Source: a virus. Taken from it: a stretch of DNA of 28,351 nucleotides. The notes beneath the pieces were generated by a model. The model was given only the letters and a program-made list of their open reading frames with translations. It did no database searches and was not told the origin of the DNA. Location of the stretch: the IMG/VR virus record IMGVR_UViG_3300045988_146736, positions 1 through 28,351 of that record; one strand, written 5' to 3'. The position numbers were made by a program, and so were the translations under genes. Positions within the stretch are counted from its first letter, which is position 1. Every line of letters begins with the position of its first letter. Shown in pieces: positions 2,504 through 28,351 of this stretch.

Positions 2504-2869
2504 ATGAACACCGAGACCGCGACCACGAACGAAACCATCCGCGACTACCTCGGCGACTTCGCCAATGAGTTCACCGAGGATCAAATCAGCATCATCACCG
2601 CCGCCGCTACAGACGTCGAGGAGCGCATCATCGCCAAGTACGGCGACATGACCCTCGAGGAGCGCGGCGTGATGATGCTGACGCCGCTCGAGGCTATCGT
2701 CGAGTACGTCAGTGATGAGACGACGCTCGCTAAGTGCGTCGGCGACGATGAGCGCCTGGAGGCCGCCCTGATCGCCGGTGCATACAGTGGCCGCCTCACG
2801 GAGCGCCTTGCCGAAGCCGCCGGGATCGACCTGGCCAAGGCGCAGGAGCTCCTCGGGGATCTTGCCTGA
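2504..2869 (+). CDS. Acidic protein of unknown function, paralog A (121 aa), possible C-terminal helix-turn-helix
   Basis: ATG with the conserved RBS block. By eye it aligns along its whole length with the product of 8723..9082 (MNTET..., ITxAAT..EER, YGxMT, RLExAxIAGxYxG, LAxxAGIxLAKAxxxLGxL). I count about 26 Asp/Glu against 9 Arg/Lys. Confidence 0.8.
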   Translation: MNTETATTNETIRDYLGDFANEFTEDQISIITAAATDVEERIIAKYGDMTLEERGVMMLTPLEAIVEYVSDETTLAKCVGDDERLEAALIAGAYSGRLTERLAEAAGIDLAKAQELLGDLA

Positions 2870-2877
2870 CTTACCCC

Positions 2878-2907
2878 GGAGGCCCCGTCCATCCCGGCGG
2901 GGCCTCC
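2878..2907 (+). promoter_or_regulatory. GC-rich hairpin after paralog A (possible attenuator or RNA-stabilising element)
   Basis: ggaggccccg (2878..2887) pairs with cggggcctcc (2898..2907): a 10-bp stem with a 10-nt loop and no U-tract. A hairpin occupies the same position after paralog B. Confidence 0.4.
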
Positions 2908-2930
2908 ACCTCGTGAAAGGATAATACACC

Positions 2931-3152
2931 ATGACCACCATCGAGCCCCCCGACTTCGCGTTCAACTTCAAGACCGGATATGCCCGCATTGGCTCCGAGA
3001 CCATCCGCCCAATCAATGGCATCACCCAGCAGACCAACGGCTTCGGGGCGCATTTCATCACACTGACTATCCCGGTTGCCCGCGTCATCATCGAGGACGA
3101 TCCGACCGGCCCCGTTAACCCGTCCGCCCCTAGCTTCACCGTGCGCCCCTGA
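2931..3152 (+). CDS. Hypothetical protein (73 aa)
   Basis: ATG preceded by GAAAGGA. Same strand as the rest of island 1. No recognisable motif. Confidence 0.55.
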   Translation: MTTIEPPDFAFNFKTGYARIGSETIRPINGITQQTNGFGAHFITLTIPVARVIIEDDPTGPVNPSAPSFTVRP

Positions 3153-3165
3153 AGGGACTAAGACA

Positions 3166-3888
3166 ATGACCGCTATTGACAAGATCATCGCGCAGATTCG
3201 CCAGCTCCTGAAAATTGCGTCCGACGGGGGCGCGAGTATCAACGAGCGCGAATTGGCGCAGCGTCGCGCCGAGCGTCTCATGGTGCGTTATCGCATCGAA
3301 ACACTGCCCGATAGTGACGCGCGCGCCCGCGACGAAGACATGACTACCATCACAGTTGAAATCAAGGGGAGCTCCGGGTCAATGGCGCGCGCAATCGTGG
3401 ACGGCCTCGCCACGCTCTCCCACGCTCTGAGTTGCTTCTGTTCGTGGCGCATGTACCGAAGCCACATCGTGGCTACCATCGTGGGCACCCGCTCGGACCT
3501 CGCATACGTCACGGAGTTCTACAACGCTGCCGTAGCGTCCTACCCGTCCATGTTGAAGGCCCGGCTGCGTCACGAAGACTTCTACAGTGAGTCGGAGCGC
3601 CGTCGTTTCCGGCGTTCCTACGTGATGGGCTATTTTGAGGGCATCGCCGAGCGTATCGAGATCGCTACCCGTGAGGAGACGACGTCGACGGGGCAGGAAC
3701 TTGTGCTTGCGTCCCGATACCAGCGGGCCGAGGCGAAGGCCCGCGAGGGGTGCAAAATACGCATGGCGCGTGACCTCATGATCGACCATAACGCGACGGT
3801 TGGCGGACAGCGCGACGGGTACGCCTCCGGCATTGGCTGGATGGGCGAGCGCCTTGACGGCCCGCGCGTCGGCATTGCCGCCTCCTGA
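3166..3888 (+). CDS. DUF2786-like protein (240 aa)
   Basis: ORF 3076..3888 trimmed to the ATG at 3166 (GAAGGGA upstream). The N-terminus IDKIIAQIRQLLKIASDGGASINERELAQRRAERLMVRYRIE matches my recollection of the DUF2786 pattern (KI.kLLalA...neNEAe.A...A..Lm.ky.I). Confidence 0.6.
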   Translation: MTAIDKIIAQIRQLLKIASDGGASINERELAQRRAERLMVRYRIETLPDSDARARDEDMTTITVEIKGSSGSMARAIVDGLATLSHALSCFCSWRMYRSHIVATIVGTRSDLAYVTEFYNAAVASYPSMLKARLRHEDFYSESERRRFRRSYVMGYFEGIAERIEIATREETTSTGQELVLASRYQRAEAKAREGCKIRMARDLMIDHNATVGGQRDGYASGIGWMGERLDGPRVGIAAS

Positions 3889-6914: not shown

Positions 6915-7283
6915 TCACTCGCTGTCGGCGAGCGCGGCGGCGATAGCCGTGTCAATGGCCGGGTAGGTCGGGCGCTCCTTACCCTCCCACTTGGAGCCCG
7001 CCCACACCTGCGCGGGCCAAAGGCGGCGGGGAAGGACGGCCTCGATGTCCGGCCACTCGCCCGGATCGTCGGATGAGAAGTAGACCTTCTCGCCGAGGAT
7101 GCGGTTCATGACGACGCGAACCTCGTCGTCAATGACGTCGATGTAGATTGCGAGGAGGTTGTCGCCGTCAACGCGGGCCGTGAGGTCTGCGCCGGGCGCG
7201 ATGATGCGCTTCCAGTCGCCGAGGGGCAGCTTGTTCAGGTCGATCCAGTTGAGTTGATCGGCGGAGGTAATGATCGGGTTCAT
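6915..7283 (-). CDS. Hypothetical protein (122 aa), first gene behind early cassette copy 3
   Basis: ORF 6915..7442 trimmed to the ATG at 7283. That ATG is preceded by the same AGACCGAAAGGACCGAAACC block seen upstream of 2504 and 8723. Confidence 0.7.
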   Translation of the reverse strand: MNPIITSADQLNWIDLNKLPLGDWKRIIAPGADLTARVDGDNLLAIYIDVIDDEVRVVMNRILGEKVYFSSDDPGEWPDIEAVLPRRLWPAQVWAGSKWEGKERPTYPAIDTAIAAALADSE

Positions 7284-7362
7284 GGTTTCGGTCCTTTCGG
7301 TCTTTGGGCGGGCGTTTCCCTCCCAATGATCCCAGCATACACCTATGCATAGCCGTATGCAA
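7284..7362 (-). promoter_or_regulatory. Early promoter-leader cassette, copy 3 (inverted relative to copies 1 and 2)
   Basis: Minus strand: -35 TTGCAT (7362..7357), 17-nt spacer, -10 TATGCT (7339..7334), hairpin 7326..7304, then AGACCGAAAGGACCGAAACC-ATG. Confidence 0.7.
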
Positions 7363-7397
7363 GACGCGTTTAGTGATGTGGCATACATAAAGTGAAA

Positions 7398-7534: not shown

Positions 7535-8545
7535 TTAAATGAGGAAGTCGAGCGGCGCGTCGATCCCCCGCCGGAACCGATCATGAATCAACGGGATATA
7601 GCGCTCGTCGAGCTCACACCCGACCGCGTTCACGCCCTCCATTGCGGCGGCCTGTAGGGTCGTCCCCGACCCGGCGAACGGCTCGAGGATCGTCGCGCCT
7701 GGCCTCACCACAAGCCGGATCAGGTAACGCATGAGATCGAGGGGCTTGACTGTCACGTGCTGCACCCCCCCCACCTTCGGGCGTTCGTGCGTCGGGGCCT
7801 TCGGCTGGTACTTGAAGCTCGGCCAGCTGTGATCGGGCGCGCCCTGTTCGACAGCCGCCGCGAGCGCGGCTTCGCTGACCATGAGGTTAGGCGGGTAGGA
7901 CCCGCCGACGGCGTCCATTGCTGACCGGATGTTCATTGCTCCGGTCCCGAAGGCGCTCACGTTGTCGACTAAGCTGCCCTCGAGTGGCTTTCGAGCCACT
8001 ACGATAGGCTCCCATGCTGGTTTTAGGCCGAGGCCCCAGCCGTCCCATGTCTTAGCCATGTCCGTAACCGGCTCGCCGGAGCTGTGTACCTTGTGGGTGG
8101 ACATATGCGTCGCTGTGTTGCCGCTGTCCCACTTTCTCACGTCGCGCCCCTCGCGCTCGTCGAGAACACCGGCTGCCCTGTCGAACATTGCAGAGAGATT
8201 TACCGCCGCCGGTTTCCTATCGGCGAATATCCATGAGAGTCCATCCCTGACTTCGAAGCCCGCATCCTCAATGCCAGCTGTGAGACGATGGTAGGTTCGC
8301 GGCGACGAAAACGCCAGCAGGTAGCCGCCGGGCTTGATGGTGCGCAGAGCTTCAACTGCCCATGATTCGGCCCATGATTGAAACCCGCGCGGCGTTGCGG
8401 TGTCCCACTTTTCGCCCATGAATGAAATTCCATACGGCGGGTCGGTAATGATCGCGTCGAAGTGATCGGCGGGCATTTCCCGCATGATGTCGCGGCAGTC
8501 GCCGTTGTGGAGGGTAATCCCCTCATAGATTGTTTGTCCGGTCAT
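7535..8545 (-). CDS. DNA methyltransferase, beta-class (N6_N4_Mtase family), probably N6-adenine (336 aa)
   Basis: ORF 7535..8617 trimmed to the ATG at 8545 (the upstream Met codons fall inside the promoter). Motif IV IITDPPYG is near the N-terminus and motif I ILEPFAGSGTT near the C-terminus. There is no adjacent restriction endonuclease. Confidence 0.85.
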   Translation of the reverse strand: MTGQTIYEGITLHNGDCRDIMREMPADHFDAIITDPPYGISFMGEKWDTATPRGFQSWAESWAVEALRTIKPGGYLLAFSSPRTYHRLTAGIEDAGFEVRDGLSWIFADRKPAAVNLSAMFDRAAGVLDEREGRDVRKWDSGNTATHMSTHKVHSSGEPVTDMAKTWDGWGLGLKPAWEPIVVARKPLEGSLVDNVSAFGTGAMNIRSAMDAVGGSYPPNLMVSEAALAAAVEQGAPDHSWPSFKYQPKAPTHERPKVGGVQHVTVKPLDLMRYLIRLVVRPGATILEPFAGSGTTLQAAAMEGVNAVGCELDERYIPLIHDRFRRGIDAPLDFLI

Positions 8546-8579
8546 GGTTGCTCGCTTTGGTAGGTGGCATTGCGTTTCG

Positions 8580-8608
8580 ATAGTAGGGCCATGCATCACT
8601 GTATGCAA
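8580..8608 (-). promoter_or_regulatory. Predicted methyltransferase promoter (TTGCAT-17-TACTAT)
   Basis: Minus strand: TTGCATACagtgATGCATggcccTACTAT. It shares the TTGCATAC-N4-ATGCAT layout with cassette copies 1 and 3, and lies back-to-back with cassette copy 2. Confidence 0.55.
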
Positions 8609-8645
8609 ATCTTCCATATGTGGCTACAGTCTCTTATATCCCTAC

Positions 8646-8722
8646 TTGCATAACGCTATCCACTAGGTGTATGCTGGGGGTATCCCCTGAAGGGCAGGGG
8701 ACAGACCGAAAGGACCGAAACC
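8646..8722 (+). promoter_or_regulatory. Early promoter-leader cassette, copy 2
   Basis: -35 TTGCAT at 8646..8651, 18-nt spacer, -10 TATGCT at 8670..8675. Hairpin tcccctg/cagggga at 8683..8701, then AGACCGAAAGGACCGAAACC-GTG. Confidence 0.65.
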
Positions 8723-9082
8723 GTGAACACCGAGACCGTTATCAAGATGGTTGGCGACTTCTTTGACCTCACCGCCGAGGACTTCACCCCCAAGCAGCTC
8801 GCCGTCATCACCGAAGCCGCGACCGAAATCGAGGAGCGCCTCGCTAGGTACGGCGAGATGACGACGTTCGAGAAGAACATCATGATGCACGGCGCTATGG
8901 GTGCCGTCGTTGACTACGCGAGCGGATGCACGCCCCTGGCCGAGTTCATCTACGATGACGCCCGCCTGGAGGGCGCGATGATCGCGGGCATCTACGCAGG
9001 CAAGACCACGGCCCAGCTCGCCAACGAAGCGGGCATCACGCTTGCCAAGGCGTCGCGCATCCTCGGCAGCCTTGACTTCTGA
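8723..9082 (+). CDS. Acidic protein of unknown function, paralog B (119 aa)
   Basis: GTG start in the conserved leader context. The first 15 coding nt after the start codon are identical to those of 2504..2869. The protein aligns with paralog A over its full length. Confidence 0.8.
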   Translation: MNTETVIKMVGDFFDLTAEDFTPKQLAVITEAATEIEERLARYGEMTTFEKNIMMHGAMGAVVDYASGCTPLAEFIYDDARLEGAMIAGIYAGKTTAQLANEAGITLAKASRILGSLDF

Positions 9083-9090
9083 CCTATCCC

Positions 9091-9114
9091 CGCCCCGCCC
9101 AACCGGGCGGGGCG
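9091..9114 (+). promoter_or_regulatory. GC-rich hairpin after paralog B
   Basis: cgccccgccc (9091..9100) pairs with gggcggggcg (9105..9114): a perfect 10-bp stem with a 4-nt loop, followed by TTAT. Confidence 0.45.
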
Positions 9115-9144
9115 TTATCACCCCAATCACGAAAGAAGACCGAA

Positions 9145-9489
9145 ATGACCGAAAACACCGAAGCCCACGACCGCGATGACCACGTGACCACGGCACTGCT
9201 GGCCGCCCTGATCGGCAAGACCGTACAAAGCGTTACCGTCACGCTCCCAGCCGACGCGCTGACCGGTGACTACCTTGCCCACCTCGTCGCCGACATGGAG
9301 CCCGCCGAGTACGAGGCGTTCGCCGCGACCCTTGACGAGCAGGTCGTCGCCAACGGCGCAACCAAGGCCGCCGCGCTCACCGATCCGCGCGAGGACCGCA
9401 CGCCACATTGGCGGGGCGCTATCTACATGATTGACCGCGACGGGGACGACGTCACCGTGAAGGTGCTGGTTTTCACCTGCCGGTGCTAA
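9145..9489 (+). CDS. Hypothetical acidic protein (114 aa)
   Basis: ATG preceded by GAAAGAAGACCGAA. Second and last gene of island 2. No recognisable motif. Confidence 0.6.
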   Translation: MTENTEAHDRDDHVTTALLAALIGKTVQSVTVTLPADALTGDYLAHLVADMEPAEYEAFAATLDEQVVANGATKAAALTDPREDRTPHWRGAIYMIDRDGDDVTVKVLVFTCRC

Positions 9490-9499
9490 GCGCGTAGAC

Positions 9500-9536
9500 C
9501 AAGGCCCCCACCTGGACGGTCCAGGTGGGGGCCTTG
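9500..9536. terminator. Bidirectional terminator hairpin between island 2 and the end of the late/lysis operon
   Basis: aaggcccccacctgg (9501..9515) pairs with ccaggtgggggcctt (9521..9535): a perfect 15-16-bp stem between convergent genes. There is no clear U-tract, which is common for actinobacterial terminators. Confidence 0.7.
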
Positions 9537-21041: not shown

Positions 21042-21121
21042 TGCGCCTCCTTTCCTACCATGTGGCAAGGGGGGCGACCGCCAGCGCTAATGGCCGGAGC
21101 CGCCCCCCCCTGTTCACGTGG

Positions 21122-25269: not shown

Positions 25270-26788
25270 CGACAACGCCGCCGCCGCGCCGCCCCTGAGC
25301 GTTCCCACCACGGAGCGCACGGGGGCGGCGTCGCGTTGTACGGGCGATCCAGTACGCCGCCGACGCCGCGTCGAGCGGGGACGGGTCGCCGTCTTCTACG
25401 GTGGCCGCCCATCCCCAGGCCCCGTCCTGACCGCGCAGGCGCTTGTCGCACGTGGCTACCGCGCGGTTCAGGAGGTCGTCACGTTCGCCCTTCGGGTGGG
25501 TCAGGTGCTTTTCACGCACCGCATCGAGGAACAGGGACGTTGCCCCGAAATACTCGCCGGTACTCATGATGTGGATCATGGGCTTTGGGACGCCGCGCTC
25601 ACGCAGCGCTTCGGCGAGGACACCCGACCCGGCGCGCCCGAGGATCGCAATCTCCGCGATCCGGTGACGCCGTTCGGCGATCCAATCGGCGAGCTGCGCG
25701 ACGCCGACGTCCGCGCGCCCTGAGTACGCGCCGATTAGTTCGACGTGACCGCCGTCCTCGGTCCTGACCGCGCCCGCGACGGCCTGGTGAAGCCCGTCCG
25801 CCGTGAAGGACACGCCAATCGTGCGCACGCCCTCCGACTCATCCGGCGGCGTCGTGGTCGCCGTTGCCGACCATTGGGCGGGCGTAATCAGGCGCTTTGC
25901 GCCCGCGTCCTGACGCCAGATTCCGAGCCGGTCCTGTGCGAACCGTTCGGGCGTGTAGGTCTCGTATTCGCCTTGCACGACCTCGTGGTTAATTAGGCTG
26001 TTCCACGACGGGTTAGCCTGCCACCTGGTCAGCTCCGACGCCGGGTCGAAGTCGGCGGCGTCAGGGTCCGCGCCCCATTCGACCCACGCCGACGCCGTGG
26101 ACTTCCCCGACATGGCCGCCTTCCTGACCATGTCGAAGGTGTAGCAATCGTCCTCATCCTGTGGGGGCGTGCCGAGGAGCCACACCTGCGGGTTGGCGCG
26201 CGCGGATATCGTTGAGTTGATCGACGTCCACGCCCGGGACCCAAGGATCTGTGCCTCATCGAGGAGGAGGCAATCTGAGCTGAAACCCTTGCCGCCCGCG
26301 CCGGAGCGGGCCTTGAACTTGATCTTCGCGCCATTCTTGAACTTGACGGACTCGCGTCCAAAGGCGTTCATGACGCCGTTTTTTGCCAGGCGGTCACGGA
26401 GCCCCTGGTTTTCGTCGGCTTCGACGATCTCTAGGAGCTTTTCGAAGGTTTCGCGGGCCGTGTCTTGCTGATGGGCGGACACGACGATGAGGCGCTCCCC
26501 GAAAATCAATGCGCCCGCGAGCGCCCGCGCGACGAGGAGCTGGCTCTTGCCGTTCTGACGGGGCACGGACACGCCGACGCGCTTTGCCGCCCACGTGCCG
26601 TTTGCCTGTTCGCCCATCGCGGCGTCCAACACGAGCTCCTGCCACGGTAGGAGCGTGACGCCCAACATCGCGGACAGGTCGGCGACGTCTTCCCAGCCGT
26701 TAGACCGCTCGCCCTCGGGGCGGACGAGGACGCGCGGCGGGGCCTCCCCTAGCAGCGCGACGTCGGGCGAGTTCGTCGAACGGGTCAA
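25262..26788 (-). CDS. terL: Terminase large subunit (508 aa)
   Basis: Walker A-like VSVPRQNGKSQL, LLLDEAQ (Walker B), and a C-terminal nuclease-type region. The TTG start at 26788 is preceded by AGAAGGA. Confidence 0.85.
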   Translation of the reverse strand: MTRSTNSPDVALLGEAPPRVLVRPEGERSNGWEDVADLSAMLGVTLLPWQELVLDAAMGEQANGTWAAKRVGVSVPRQNGKSQLLVARALAGALIFGERLIVVSAHQQDTARETFEKLLEIVEADENQGLRDRLAKNGVMNAFGRESVKFKNGAKIKFKARSGAGGKGFSSDCLLLDEAQILGSRAWTSINSTISARANPQVWLLGTPPQDEDDCYTFDMVRKAAMSGKSTASAWVEWGADPDAADFDPASELTRWQANPSWNSLINHEVVQGEYETYTPERFAQDRLGIWRQDAGAKRLITPAQWSATATTTPPDESEGVRTIGVSFTADGLHQAVAGAVRTEDGGHVELIGAYSGRADVGVAQLADWIAERRHRIAEIAILGRAGSGVLAEALRERGVPKPMIHIMSTGEYFGATSLFLDAVREKHLTHPKGERDDLLNRAVATCDKRLRGQDGAWGWAATVEDGDPSPLDAASAAYWIARTTRRRPRALRGGNAQGRRGGGVVVM

Positions 26789-27188
26789 TTGCTGATTCCT
26801 TCTTACTGGCTTGTTCGGTCAGGGCGTTCAGCTCGGCTAGCGTGGCCCGGAATTGGCTTGCTAGCGGGCCTCGGCGGTCCGGTGGGGCGTCCTCGATGGA
26901 TGCCTTCAGGACCCCCGCTAGCCATTCTAATTCTTGCTGACGATTTTGGGGGAGGCTCACACGCCACTCGGAATGTGCCTCGATCACCTCGGGGCTGTCA
27001 TCGACCGGGCGCTCGGCTTGGTACTTCAGACGGCGGACGCGGTTCACCTCGTCGCGGTGTTTTTTCATGTACCGCCTGTTTTTCGCGTGGTCGCGACAGG
27101 TCTGTGAGCAATAGGTTTTCTTGCGTCCGCGCGCGGGCTGATCGAGCTCGGCTCCGCACTCGCGGCAGTGCGTCGGGGTGGGGGCCAT
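26700..27188 (-). CDS. terS: Putative terminase small subunit with N-terminal zinc ribbon (162 aa)
   Basis: CRECG...CSQTC zinc-ribbon-like N-terminus, a basic region, and a position immediately upstream of terL. GAAAGG RBS. Confidence 0.55.
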   Translation of the reverse strand: MAPTPTHCRECGAELDQPARGRKKTYCSQTCRDHAKNRRYMKKHRDEVNRVRRLKYQAERPVDDSPEVIEAHSEWRVSLPQNRQQELEWLAGVLKASIEDAPPDRRGPLASQFRATLAELNALTEQASKKESAIDPFDELARRRAARGGPAARPRPPRGRAV

Positions 27189-27224
27189 GTTCGACCTTTC
27201 TGTGTGTGTTTTTCGCTTTGCCTT

Positions 27225-27254
27225 GGGGGGTTCACGGGGGCCGGGGGGAGGGGG
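27225..27254 (+). other. G-quadruplex-type motif (G6-N5-G5-N2-G6-N1-G5) in the HNH-terS intergenic region
   Basis: ggggggttcacgggggccggggggaggggg, read directly from the sequence, followed by tg and a C6 run. Confidence 0.6.
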
Positions 27255-27268
27255 TGCCCCCCGTCACG

Positions 27269-27571
27269 TTACCAGGCTACCAGGGTTGTTGTGGTGCCTG
27301 TTCGGCGGCGCTTTGGAGCGTTGTTGCGCCCGTTCCCGCGCCGTTGATTGCATCGCCTGCATATCGTGCGCCCGTTGTCGAGCGTGTTCGTCCCGCCAAG
27401 CGACCACGGGGTGATGTGGTCGGGTTCGGGGCTGTCCGGTTGCAGGCTGGTGTCCCATGCGAGCGTGACGCCGCAGGTGGGGCAGGTGGTCTGTCCGGCG
27501 GCGCGGTCACGTTTAAGGACGGCTGCACGCCAGCGCTTGTGTCCGGTGGTTCCGGTCCTACTGGTGGTCAT
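27269..27571 (-). CDS. HNH endonuclease (100 aa)
   Basis: CPTCG ... DHITPWSLGGTNTLDNGRTICRRCN (paired CxxC plus the H-N-N/H core). Its position beside the terminase genes is as in cos-type HNH phages. Confidence 0.85.
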   Translation of the reverse strand: MTTSRTGTTGHKRWRAAVLKRDRAAGQTTCPTCGVTLAWDTSLQPDSPEPDHITPWSLGGTNTLDNGRTICRRCNQRRGNGRNNAPKRRRTGTTTTLVAW

Positions 27572-28043
27572 GGTGGGTGGGGGGGGTGGTTGTTGGCGGG
27601 GGGGGGGGTTTGTGGTCCCCCCCCGCCGGGGGGGGTAGAAGGGGGGGGCATTTGGCCAGGGGGTTGGGGGGGGGGGGGGGGGGTTTGTTGGCGGGCGCGC
27701 CGTGCGCTGGTGCGGGGCGCGGTTCCTTGGCGACCTTGGGGAACCGGAGGACGATCTTTTGGCCGGGCTGGCCGTTTTTGGTCGTGTAGGTTTCGAGGGC
27801 GAGGGCGCCCGTTGCGATCACGGGGTCCCCCTTGCGTAGGAGCTCGGCGGCGGCTTCGGCGTCGGCGTCCCATAGGGTCGCGTTGATCCACAGGGGCGCG
27901 CCGTCGTCCTCCCACTCGCCGGTCTGTCGGTTTTTGCGGCGGGGGGTGGCCGCGATGGATAGCTCGAGGACGGCGTGGCCGCCCTGTGTCCATCGGAGCA
28001 CGGGTTCGGCGATCCGGCCTGTGATGGTTGCTGTTGCTGGCAT
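27558..28043 (-). CDS. ssb: Single-stranded DNA-binding protein (OB fold) with a Pro-rich tail of uncertain reading frame (161 aa as read)
   Basis: The N-terminal 100 aa fit the SSB OB-fold pattern (ITGRIAEPVLRWTQGGHAV...LWDADAEAAAELLRKGDPVIATGAL). The C-terminus is encoded by C homopolymers and lacks the usual acidic tip. Confidence 0.75.
   Translation of the reverse strand: MPATATITGRIAEPVLRWTQGGHAVLELSIAATPRRKNRQTGEWEDDGAPLWINATLWDADAEAAAELLRKGDPVIATGALALETYTTKNGQPGQKIVLRFPKVAKEPRPAPAHGAPANKPPPPPPNPLAKCPPLLPPPAGGDHKPPPPPTTTPPTHHDHQ
27579..27683. repeat. Cluster of long G/C homopolymers (G8, G11, C8, G8, G8, G5, G18 on the plus strand)
   Basis: Counted directly: runs at 27579..27586, 27598..27608, 27617..27624, 27628..27635, 27641..27648, 27659..27663 and 27666..27683. 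Confidence 0.9.
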
Positions 28044-28058: not shown

Positions 28059-28351
28059 TTAGTCGCGGGTGGGGAGGTTGCGTGATGCGCGGGCGATGTC
28101 CGCGAAGGCGCGCATCGGGTCATAGTTTCGGTACTCATCGATGATACGCTGCCGTTCGGCGTCGGTGTCGATGGTGTACTCGATGCGGAGCCCGACGTGG
28201 TGCGCGTCAACGTACTCGACGGCGGTCGGTTCAATGCTGATTGCTTCGGCGTCATCGGGTAGCTTGCGGAGGGCTTTGGCGATGTCGCGGAGCTTCACTG
28301 GCTTGTCGGACGCCCAGGTGATTGTCAGGATGCGCGTGTTTCGCGTGTTCA
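28059..28351 (-). CDS. Hypothetical protein, gene split by the linearisation point (97 aa when wrapped; start codon is 33,32,31)
   Basis: The frame of ORF 28059..28298 stays open to the window end. Bases 28350..28351 (equal to 31..32) plus base 33 form an ATG with GAAAGG (47..42) 8 nt upstream and an ATGA overlap with the stop of gene 30..233. The GTG at 28298 has no RBS. Confidence 0.65.
   Translation of the reverse strand, partial: NTRNTRILTITWASDKPVKLRDIAKALRKLPDDAEAISIEPTAVEYVDAHHVGLRIEYTIDTDAERQRIIDEYRNYDPMRAFADIARASRNLPTRD
28320..28351. repeat. Terminal direct repeat, copy 2
   Basis: Identical to 1..32. Confidence 0.9.

Follow-up and report, generated by a model that had tools for sequence, protein, structure and literature searches.

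The SSB-HNH junction as assembled

The junction between the genes for an SSB and an HNH endonuclease in a 28,351-nucleotide viral genome (IMG/VR record IMGVR_UViG_3300045988_146736; this whole stretch of DNA is called the window) is a tract of extreme homopolymer runs, which raises the question of whether the SSB of this phage has an ambiguous C-terminus, possibly even fused to the nuclease, or whether the tract misrepresents the genome. The window is a circular assembly with a 32-nt terminal repeat and comes from an LC001-like phage, with 92.6% identity to Actinomyces phage LC001 (ON920540), which is lytic on the oral bacterium Schaalia odontolytica XH001 (PMC11032452). SSB is followed by the tract, HNH, a G/C-rich spacer, a 162-aa gene in the TerS position, TerL and portal, in that order. 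Pfam matches to the two genes flanking the tract agree with the identities assigned in the first-pass annotation, which had been made from the sequence alone:

27750 to 28043, minus strand: OB-fold part of the SSB (about aa 1-98; PF00436, E 2e-14, over aa 5-98).
27269 to 27571, minus strand: HNH endonuclease gene, 100 aa, separate from the SSB (PF01844, E 1.5e-11; phrog_338).

On the plus strand the runs are G8 (27579-27586), G11 (27598-27608), C8 (27617-27624), G8 (27628-27635), G8 (27641-27648) and G18 (27666-27683), which make up six of the ten runs of at least 8 bases in the window (28.35 kb), all inside 105 nt (27579-27683). The minus (coding) strand reads AAA-C18-AA-C5-TGGCCAAATG-C8-TTCTA-C8-GGC-G8-ACCACAAA-C11-GCCAACAACCA-C8-ACCCACC-ATG, with no stop codon in any of the three minus-strand frames of the window between 27572 and 27700. 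The SSB frame as read stops at 27560-27558 and gives a 161-aa ORF ending in ...THHDHQ; a second frame ends at TGA (27570-27568), overlapping the HNH ATG; and the HNH frame is open upstream to 27817, its first ATG being at 27571. The run cluster, the three open frames and the positions at which they end (27558, TGA 27568, and the HNH frame open from 27817) had been described in the first-pass annotation, and a recheck of the window agrees on every point. What is confirmed in this way is the text of one assembly, not the genome of the phage: the extreme homopolymers and open frames are very probably base-calling and assembly errors over a real, ordinary C-rich junction.

The same genome in other assemblies

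Contigs of the same strain were found by looking up the exact TerL protein of the window: L042 (an ENA scaffold, sample SAMEA2738126), L043 (a MEGAHIT k127 contig from run ERR589679, an oral metagenome of project PRJEB6997), L044 (a k119 contig) and L045 (a Logan contig of ERR589679); L046 is an additional Logan contig of ERR589679. The exact-TerL route gave these same-strain assemblies, and the nearest relative reached through the HNH protein was only 96% identical. Outside the tract, L042-L046 have 0 differences from the window over about 13.7 kb (100%), and from these flanks we infer that the window is the same genome as the ERR589679 assemblies.

Every difference between the window and L042/L043 is confined to 27606-27684, so that assemblies of one genome differ only at the suspect site, as is characteristic of an artefact. 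On the coding strand the window has C where L042/L043 have A at seven positions (27648, 27635, 27632, 27606, 27674, 27670 and 27667), has the opposite change at 27684 (A in the window, C in L042/L043), and lacks a net 14 nt; in terms of codons, GAC has become GCC, TAA has become TAC, and two CCA have become CCC. L042 and L043 are concordant, reading ...AAC GCC CCC TGG CCA AAT GAC CCC CCC TTC TAA CCACCCC GGCGGGGGGGG ACCACAAACCA CCCCCCCCGCC AACAACCACCCCCCCCACCCACC ATG, where the part from the tip onward can also be written GAC C7 TTC TAA CCACCCC GGCG8 ACCACAAACCA C8 GCC. None of the other assemblies of the identical genome has the C18, the C11, two of the C8 runs, the loss of the stop or the offset of the frame. 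The starts of L043, L044 and L045 all lie within the tract.

The C-terminus of the SSB

The 3' part of the SSB gene, as established by these comparisons, consists of three segments:

27659 to 27749, minus strand: Pro/Asn/Gln-rich linker, aligned with L042/L043 and LC001; corrupted in the window from about 27692.
27638 to 27658, minus strand: tip codons TGG CCA AAT GAC CCC CCC TTC (WPNDPPF), on the evidence of L042/L043, homologues and CRISPR spacers.
27635 to 27637, minus strand: the true stop codon, TAA, as in L042, L043 and relatives; TAC in the window (A to C at 27635).

The corrected SSB (L042) has 140 aa, ends in ...APWPNDPPF followed by TAA, and matches phrog_44 over aa 3-139 (E 2.5e-26); the OB-fold part is 85-96% identical to phage SSBs P0002-P0011. 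Its linker holds the first copy of a direct repeat, GCCAACAACCAC7ACCCACCA, which in the window is degraded to A followed by C18 (27666-27683), with C for A at 27674, 27670 and 27667, A for C at 27684, and the loss of 14 nt that shifts the frame. This loss puts the tip, which has GCC at 27649-27647 (A to C at 27648), into the HNH frame of the window, where it is still legible as WPNAPPFY. The earlier remark that the SSB has no acidic tip is wrong for the genome.

Fifteen of the 25 SSB homologue clusters end in PNDPPF, each with 129-140 aa, and these include the LC001 protein and one cluster with 221 member sequences. Twenty DNA sequences reach across the tip and the hairpin that follows it; GAC is present in 17 of them, TAA in 19 and CCACCCC after the stop in 16, and the window is the only one with TAC at the stop position. 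An exact search of IMG/VR for the window's own variant of the tip gave zero matches. Host genomes hold an independent record of the tip and stop: two I-E-like CRISPR arrays (28-nt repeat, 33-nt spacers) have spacers reading ...CCCCCTGGCCAAA(T/C)GACCCCCCCTTCTAA.., which carry GAC-C7-TTCTAA. A scan of GTDB genomes for SSB relatives gave two remote MAG matches only (31-33% identity) and no helpful prophage copy.

The C-terminus of the SSB is thus unambiguous (140 aa, ...WPNDPPF, stop at 27637-27635), and SSB and HNH are separate genes. The first-pass annotation had held that the true product could not be decided, and had proposed comparison with related phages as one way to decide it; sister assemblies and relatives settle the matter in favour of error, with WPNDPPF and TAA conserved. 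In known SSBs (PF00436) the OB fold is followed by a disordered linker and an acidic-hydrophobic tip, such as ...DDDIPF in E. coli and ...DEPPF in actinobacteria. The corrected protein resembles them in its OB fold, its short Pro/Gln/Asn-rich linker and its terminal ...NDPPF, and differs in having just one acidic residue in the tip and a very short linker of about 25 aa. As written in the window, the protein is unlike known SSBs in having the OB fold without a tip: an acidic residue with an (I/P)PF end is missing from the ORF as read and present in L042 and in 15 of the 25 clusters, and on these sequences the phage can be counted among those with such a tip.

The intergenic hairpin and the HNH leader

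Two further elements lie between the SSB stop and the HNH start codon:

27595 to 27627, minus strand: conserved intergenic hairpin, seen in the RNA fold of L042 and as an inverted repeat in relatives.
27571 to 27597, minus strand: second copy of the direct repeat, GCCAACAACCAC8ACCCACCA, which serves as the C/A-rich HNH leader; no differences between the window and L042-L045.

The hairpin begins 10 nt after the SSB stop and is made up of GGCG8 (27627-27617), an 11-nt loop ACCACAAACCA (27616-27606) and C8GCC (27605-27595); the C11 of the window consists of the C8 arm and adjoining loop bases, A having become C at 27606. Folding of 111 nt of L042 (770-880) gives an 11-bp stem with an MFE of -31.2 kcal/mol and a z score of -3.1. 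LC001, L015, L032-L043 and L055-L057 share this G(n)...C(n) inverted repeat, and in more distant relatives, too, HNH is preceded by a G/C hairpin and a C/A-rich leader. Covariation is not possible in arms that consist of a G run and a C run. The stem is not followed by a T run and is not called by a consensus scan for intrinsic terminators; a promoter and terminator scan found nothing at the junction, and an Rfam scan of the junction returned a chance miRNA match only (E 0.92), with no family. Stem-loop ("I-shaped") terminators without a U tail have been reported for Actinobacteria, and the phage hairpin is like them in having an 11-bp G/C stem 10 nt past the SSB stop, with similar hairpins in distant relatives; lacking a U tract, a scan call and an Rfam match, it is a candidate only. 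It probably serves, where the replication module meets the packaging module, as a stem-loop lacking a U tail that stabilises RNA or acts like a terminator.

The HNH leader has no Shine-Dalgarno sequence, and its C8 (27586-27579), which L042-L045 share with the window, is genuine. The direct repeat (26-27 nt, GCCAACAACCAC7-8ACCCACCA) is found in LC001 and most close relatives, and the linker residues ANNHPPTH are specified by its first copy; in L003/L039 the whole segment from one copy to the other is missing.

Once corrected, the junction still has five runs of 7-8 bases in 133 nt, compared with six runs of at least 7 in the other 28 kb: two are Pro-Pro codons (CAC CCC CCC ACC and GAC CCC CCC TTC), two are the hairpin arms, and the last is in the HNH leader. 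It also remains the top G4Hunter window of the genome, with a score of 1.33 compared with 1.82 as assembled; the G4 and i-motif propensity noticed earlier is real, if weaker after correction.

Signature and proposed origin of the errors

Relative to LC001, seven of the nine substitutions in the tract are to G on the plus strand (6 T>G, 1 A>G), every one of them after GG. GGT has become GGG at 6 of the 13 GGT sites in the tract, compared with 24 of 614 outside it (Fisher p = 1e-5; both relative to LC001). This conversion of the base after a run to the run base, on one strand, is what defines the Illumina post-homopolymer or GGT error, which has been attributed to phasing lag (PMC8002175), and substitution errors are dominated by motifs ending in GG (PMC4787001). 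The likeness extends to G being called after a G run, to dependence on read direction, and to recurrence at the same sites in independent datasets. An internal control is provided by contig QWBZ01000127.1 (28.5 kb), which is terminally redundant and so contains the tract twice: the copy at its end is canonical, and the copy at its start has A converted to C at four sites, of which three (in the codon for the tip Asp, in the CCA that follows the stop and at the final base of the loop) are the window's own. The same conversions are found in different backgrounds in L036, L051 and L057, and that at the linker site in L041/L042.

The five isolated runs G9 (1976), C8 (7765), G7 (6150), G7 (6233) and C7 (14945) have the same length in LC001, and the sole isolated run that differs is a C8 at 21103, with a 2-nt indel; since the other runs are stable in length, the trouble is specific to the junction cluster. 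The case also resembles Illumina error with breaks at G/C-rich inverted repeats, in that the tract adjoins a GGC-containing inverted repeat and contig ends are degenerate homopolymers. It is unlike the usual Illumina error in that the errors made their way into the consensus of a circular contig that is nominally complete, where they gave rise to a 161-aa ORF; for errors to reach the consensus, usable coverage over the tract would probably have to be very low. A two-colour poly-G artefact was considered and set aside as a less complete account than phasing lag, the G8 arm on the coding strand being stable; several affected samples, with low IMG taxon numbers, are presumably Human Microbiome Project sets of the four-colour era.

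A mechanism can be proposed in which reads along the G-rich plus strand, passing through the G7-G8 runs and the inverted repeat, would undergo phasing lag, and a T or A after a G run would be miscalled as G, which on the coding strand would read as C in place of A. Coverage and quality would collapse over the tract, and the assembler would have bridged the gap with faulty reads, which could yield the C18, the C11, two extra C8 runs, GAC to GCC and TAA to TAC, as well as the 14-nt loss and the shift of frame. Dislocation mutagenesis (transient misalignment) can bring about substitution toward a neighbouring run base in vivo, so that the direction of change alone is no proof of error.

Assembly breaks and false proteins

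The tract is also where most of the older assemblies break off. Seven of nine IMG/VR contigs with this SSB end in it or just before it, five of them (L005, L007, L008, L009 and L010) trailing into homopolymer-rich sequence that overwrites known coding sequence, such as G22 in L005 and C25, C12 and C15 in L009. Of eight close HNH contigs on the other side, six have their first base 10-61 nt ahead of the ATG; in two genome-length IMG/VR contigs (31.4 and 32.1 kb) SSB and HNH are at opposite ends, and the GenBank record of LC001 is cut inside the hairpin, on which most contig breaks are centred. About ten assemblies, mostly newer ones (k141 MEGAHIT, Logan, SPAdes-style), cross the tract cleanly. 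The possibility of a simple error, which the first-pass annotation had listed first, and its warning that such runs are error-prone are both borne out by sister assemblies and relatives.

Three database proteins join the two genes: P0006, from a 1607-nt contig, is a 225-aa in-frame SSB-HNH protein, and P0005 and P0007 (227 aa) run out of frame into HNH. These three and contig L003/L039 skip exactly the segment between the direct repeats, and all three frames occur among them, L039 stopping at ATGA. P0005-P0007 look like deletions or assembly collapses between the 26-27-nt repeats; they may have arisen when a de Bruijn graph collapsed at a repeat beside a loop of low coverage, or may represent deletion variants that are not under selection.

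Run-length variation and CRISPR spacers

An alternative to error is that the tract is truly hypermutable, by slippage or dislocation in its C7-C8 and G8 runs, with co-existing sub-populations of which the window shows one real variant. Runs of G or C of at least 8 are the classic slippage sites of phase-variable loci; the hairpin runs vary from G7 to G12 and from C6 to C8 (up to C10 in one alignment) among contigs with an identical HNH protein; and both versions of the tract are present in one assembly, QWBZ01000127.1. In addition, two independent spacers, in three assemblies, have C6 at the tip run, compared with C7 in all phage contigs. They belong to type III-like arrays (36-nt repeat) whose neighbours are a RAMP protein and a stand-alone Cas1; acquisition of these spacers from RNA by an RT-Cas1 was considered and found no support, the neighbouring Cas1 being stand-alone with the RAMP protein adjoining.

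Against hypermutability, the window variant would have lost the tip Asp, the stop and the frame at once in a genome otherwise identical to assemblies in which the gene is intact. Its changes are mostly substitutions of the known Illumina type rather than changes of length, and those in the coding part are substitutions and a deletion, not simple run-length changes; contig ends in G22 or C25 overwrite coding sequence and cannot be biological; and C6 at the tip is found in none of the phage contigs (n=20 junction sequences). The window is therefore quite unlikely to be a real variant of this kind, although some of the intergenic run-length variation among contigs may be real slippage. There is likewise only a slight chance that the run cluster is a real slippage hot spot in oral actinophages, with -1/+1 variants (for example C6 at the DPPF codons) at appreciable frequency; if it were, the result would be a tip-less SSB or an altered hairpin length, and defective genomes might preferentially feed CRISPR adaptation.

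The packaging module and the genome ends

Downstream of the HNH gene are the following:

27189 to 27268, minus strand: G/C-run-rich spacer, a candidate cos region; identical in the window, LC001 and L003, and without differences in L042.
27188-26700, minus strand: 162-aa protein in the TerS position, with a zinc-ribbon-like N-terminus and no family match.
26788-25262, minus strand: TerL (phrog_9, E 7e-61).

For the exact HNH protein the collection has 39 indexed blocks (22 contigs examined), and in 7 of the 10 places shown HNH is called separately beside a 139-140-aa SSB. PF01844 and PF14279 are both matched, and the order HNH, 162-aa gene, TerL (phrog_9), portal is that of an HNH-terminase module. 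HNH-associated cos phages (HK97 and Cutibacterium phages) have the HNH gene at the genome end next to cos, an arrangement reportedly described by Kala et al. in 2014. The window resembles the HK97 gp74 type and the HNH of Cutibacterium acnes phages in that a 100-aa HNH is directly followed by the gene in the TerS position and TerL, and its HNH gene has 71-74% DNA similarity to those of Cutibacterium phages; unlike in those phages, the cos site is here only a candidate and the role of HNH in cos cleavage putative.

If the tract were the physical ends of the packaged genome, contigs and the LC001 record would be expected to end there. The two genome-length contigs with SSB and HNH at opposite ends would fit, as would two more contigs (27.6 kb) that start just upstream of HNH, the exact abutment of the two ends of LC001 inside the hairpin C run, and the starts of L016, L018, L019 and L044 within about 6 nt of the LC001 cut position. 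The SSB-side ends, however, are degenerate and scattered over about 150 nt, the HNH-side starts vary from 10 to 61 nt before the ATG (a scatter of about 50 nt), and about ten mostly newer assemblies cross the tract cleanly. The analogy with the HNH-cos phages points instead to the spacer at 27268-27189, inside which one IMG/VR contig ends, and which by this comparison would be the likelier cos region. Because contig end positions are heterogeneous, a physical terminus at the tract was rejected as very improbable. The description of LC001 states nothing about its genome termini or sequencing method (PMC11032452).

Frame relations between SSB and HNH

In close relatives TAA and ATG are 62-67 nt apart, which leaves remainders of 0, 1 and 2 on division by 3, and thus there is no conserved frame relation between the two genes. 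The ATGA coupling and the SSB-HNH fusion frames to which the first-pass annotation had drawn attention were created by errors in run length and by erroneous substitutions. Programmed ribosomal frameshifting or transcriptional slippage that would produce alternative SSB tails, including an SSB-HNH fusion, has next to no likelihood: the TAA of this strain (L042/L043) is in frame with the HNH ATG, 66 nt away, and the in-frame 225-aa P0006 exists in the database, but the frame relation is not kept in relatives, TAA is retained in 19 of the 20 junction sequences, P0005-P0007 and L039 show all three frame outcomes, as expected for an artefact, and no product would keep both the tip and the HNH domain.

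Implications for LC001-like phages

With the errors removed, what is left is unremarkable biology: the SSB has its tip, a stem-loop stands between the replication module and the packaging module, and HNH is preceded by a C/A-rich leader. The main value of the finding is for quality control, as a warning about the tract and the false proteins in databases. Forced assembly through it has given rise to the window's 161-aa SSB, P0005-P0007, the 152-aa P0010 and the frameshifted P0001, and the SSB should be annotated as a protein of 136-140 aa ending in NDPPF. In the sampled close relatives of the widespread LC001-like phages of oral Schaalia/Actinomyces, this 130-nt tract is a recurrent assembly break.

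Probable assembly products of the SSB-HNH junction and closure of the genome

Aberrant SSB products of the C/G-run tract at the SSB-HNH junction are present in public protein collections (SSB homologues P0001, P0005, P0006, P0007 and P0010; contig L003/L014/L039), among them an in-frame 225-aa SSB-HNH "fusion" and read-through proteins of 227 aa, and apparently arose by collapse between two direct repeats of 26-27 nt or by run-length errors. The C8 run at window positions 21103-21110 is C7 in the Actinomyces phage LC001, with a 2-nt indel between them, and is the only other long run in the window of which the length is not conserved in LC001.

The window begins and ends with the same 32 nt (1-32 = 28320-28351), an exact terminal direct repeat which shows that the assembly is circularly closed, at ~28.32 kb; the real genome is probably ~14 nt longer. 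In L042, the ENA assembly of the same genome (scaffold_345), the first 74 nt are duplicated in tandem (1-74 versus 75-148), which is a circularisation artefact of that assembly. Other repeats in the window are an inverted repeat of ~90 nt with 90% identity at distant sites (2425-2514 versus 7274-7363) and a near-perfect 37-nt palindrome (9500-9536). Segments ~2809-3846 and 7911-9246, which have no counterpart in LC001 and make up the bulk of the 2.1-kb difference in size between the two genomes, look like mosaic module replacements.

CRISPR spacers that match the SSB tip

Host CRISPR arrays contain spacers that exactly match the SSB-tip protospacer of LC001-like phages, at the following positions of the loci compared:

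L047, 301-333
L052, 462-485 (match), minus strand
L049, 5269-5291 (match), minus strand
L054, 745-767
L058, 8417-8439 (match), minus strand

The run in the tip is C7 in the spacers of two I-E-like arrays (28-nt repeat) and C6 in two independent spacers, both of which end in TTCTAA and belong to arrays with a 36-nt repeat, located near genes for a RAMP protein and a stand-alone Cas1.

Flanks of the HNH gene

Two features lie on the packaging side of the HNH gene:

27189-27268, G/C-run-rich spacer from the HNH stop codon to the next gene
26700-27188, minus strand, 162-aa protein in the small-terminase position

The window shares this intergenic spacer, a candidate cos site, unchanged with LC001 and L003, and L042 has no differences there; the end of IMG/VR contig 3300008136_000064 falls within it. 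The 162-aa protein has a zinc-ribbon-like CxxC...CxxxC motif at its N-terminus, and searches of Pfam and PHROG gave no match. In more distant relatives with HNH proteins 55-61% identical (L021-L023 and L025-L028), the HNH gene is likewise preceded by a G/C hairpin and by a long non-coding leader rich in C and A (locus positions ~980-1200). Since these distant relatives share the hairpin and leader layout before HNH, it therefore predates the LC001 group.
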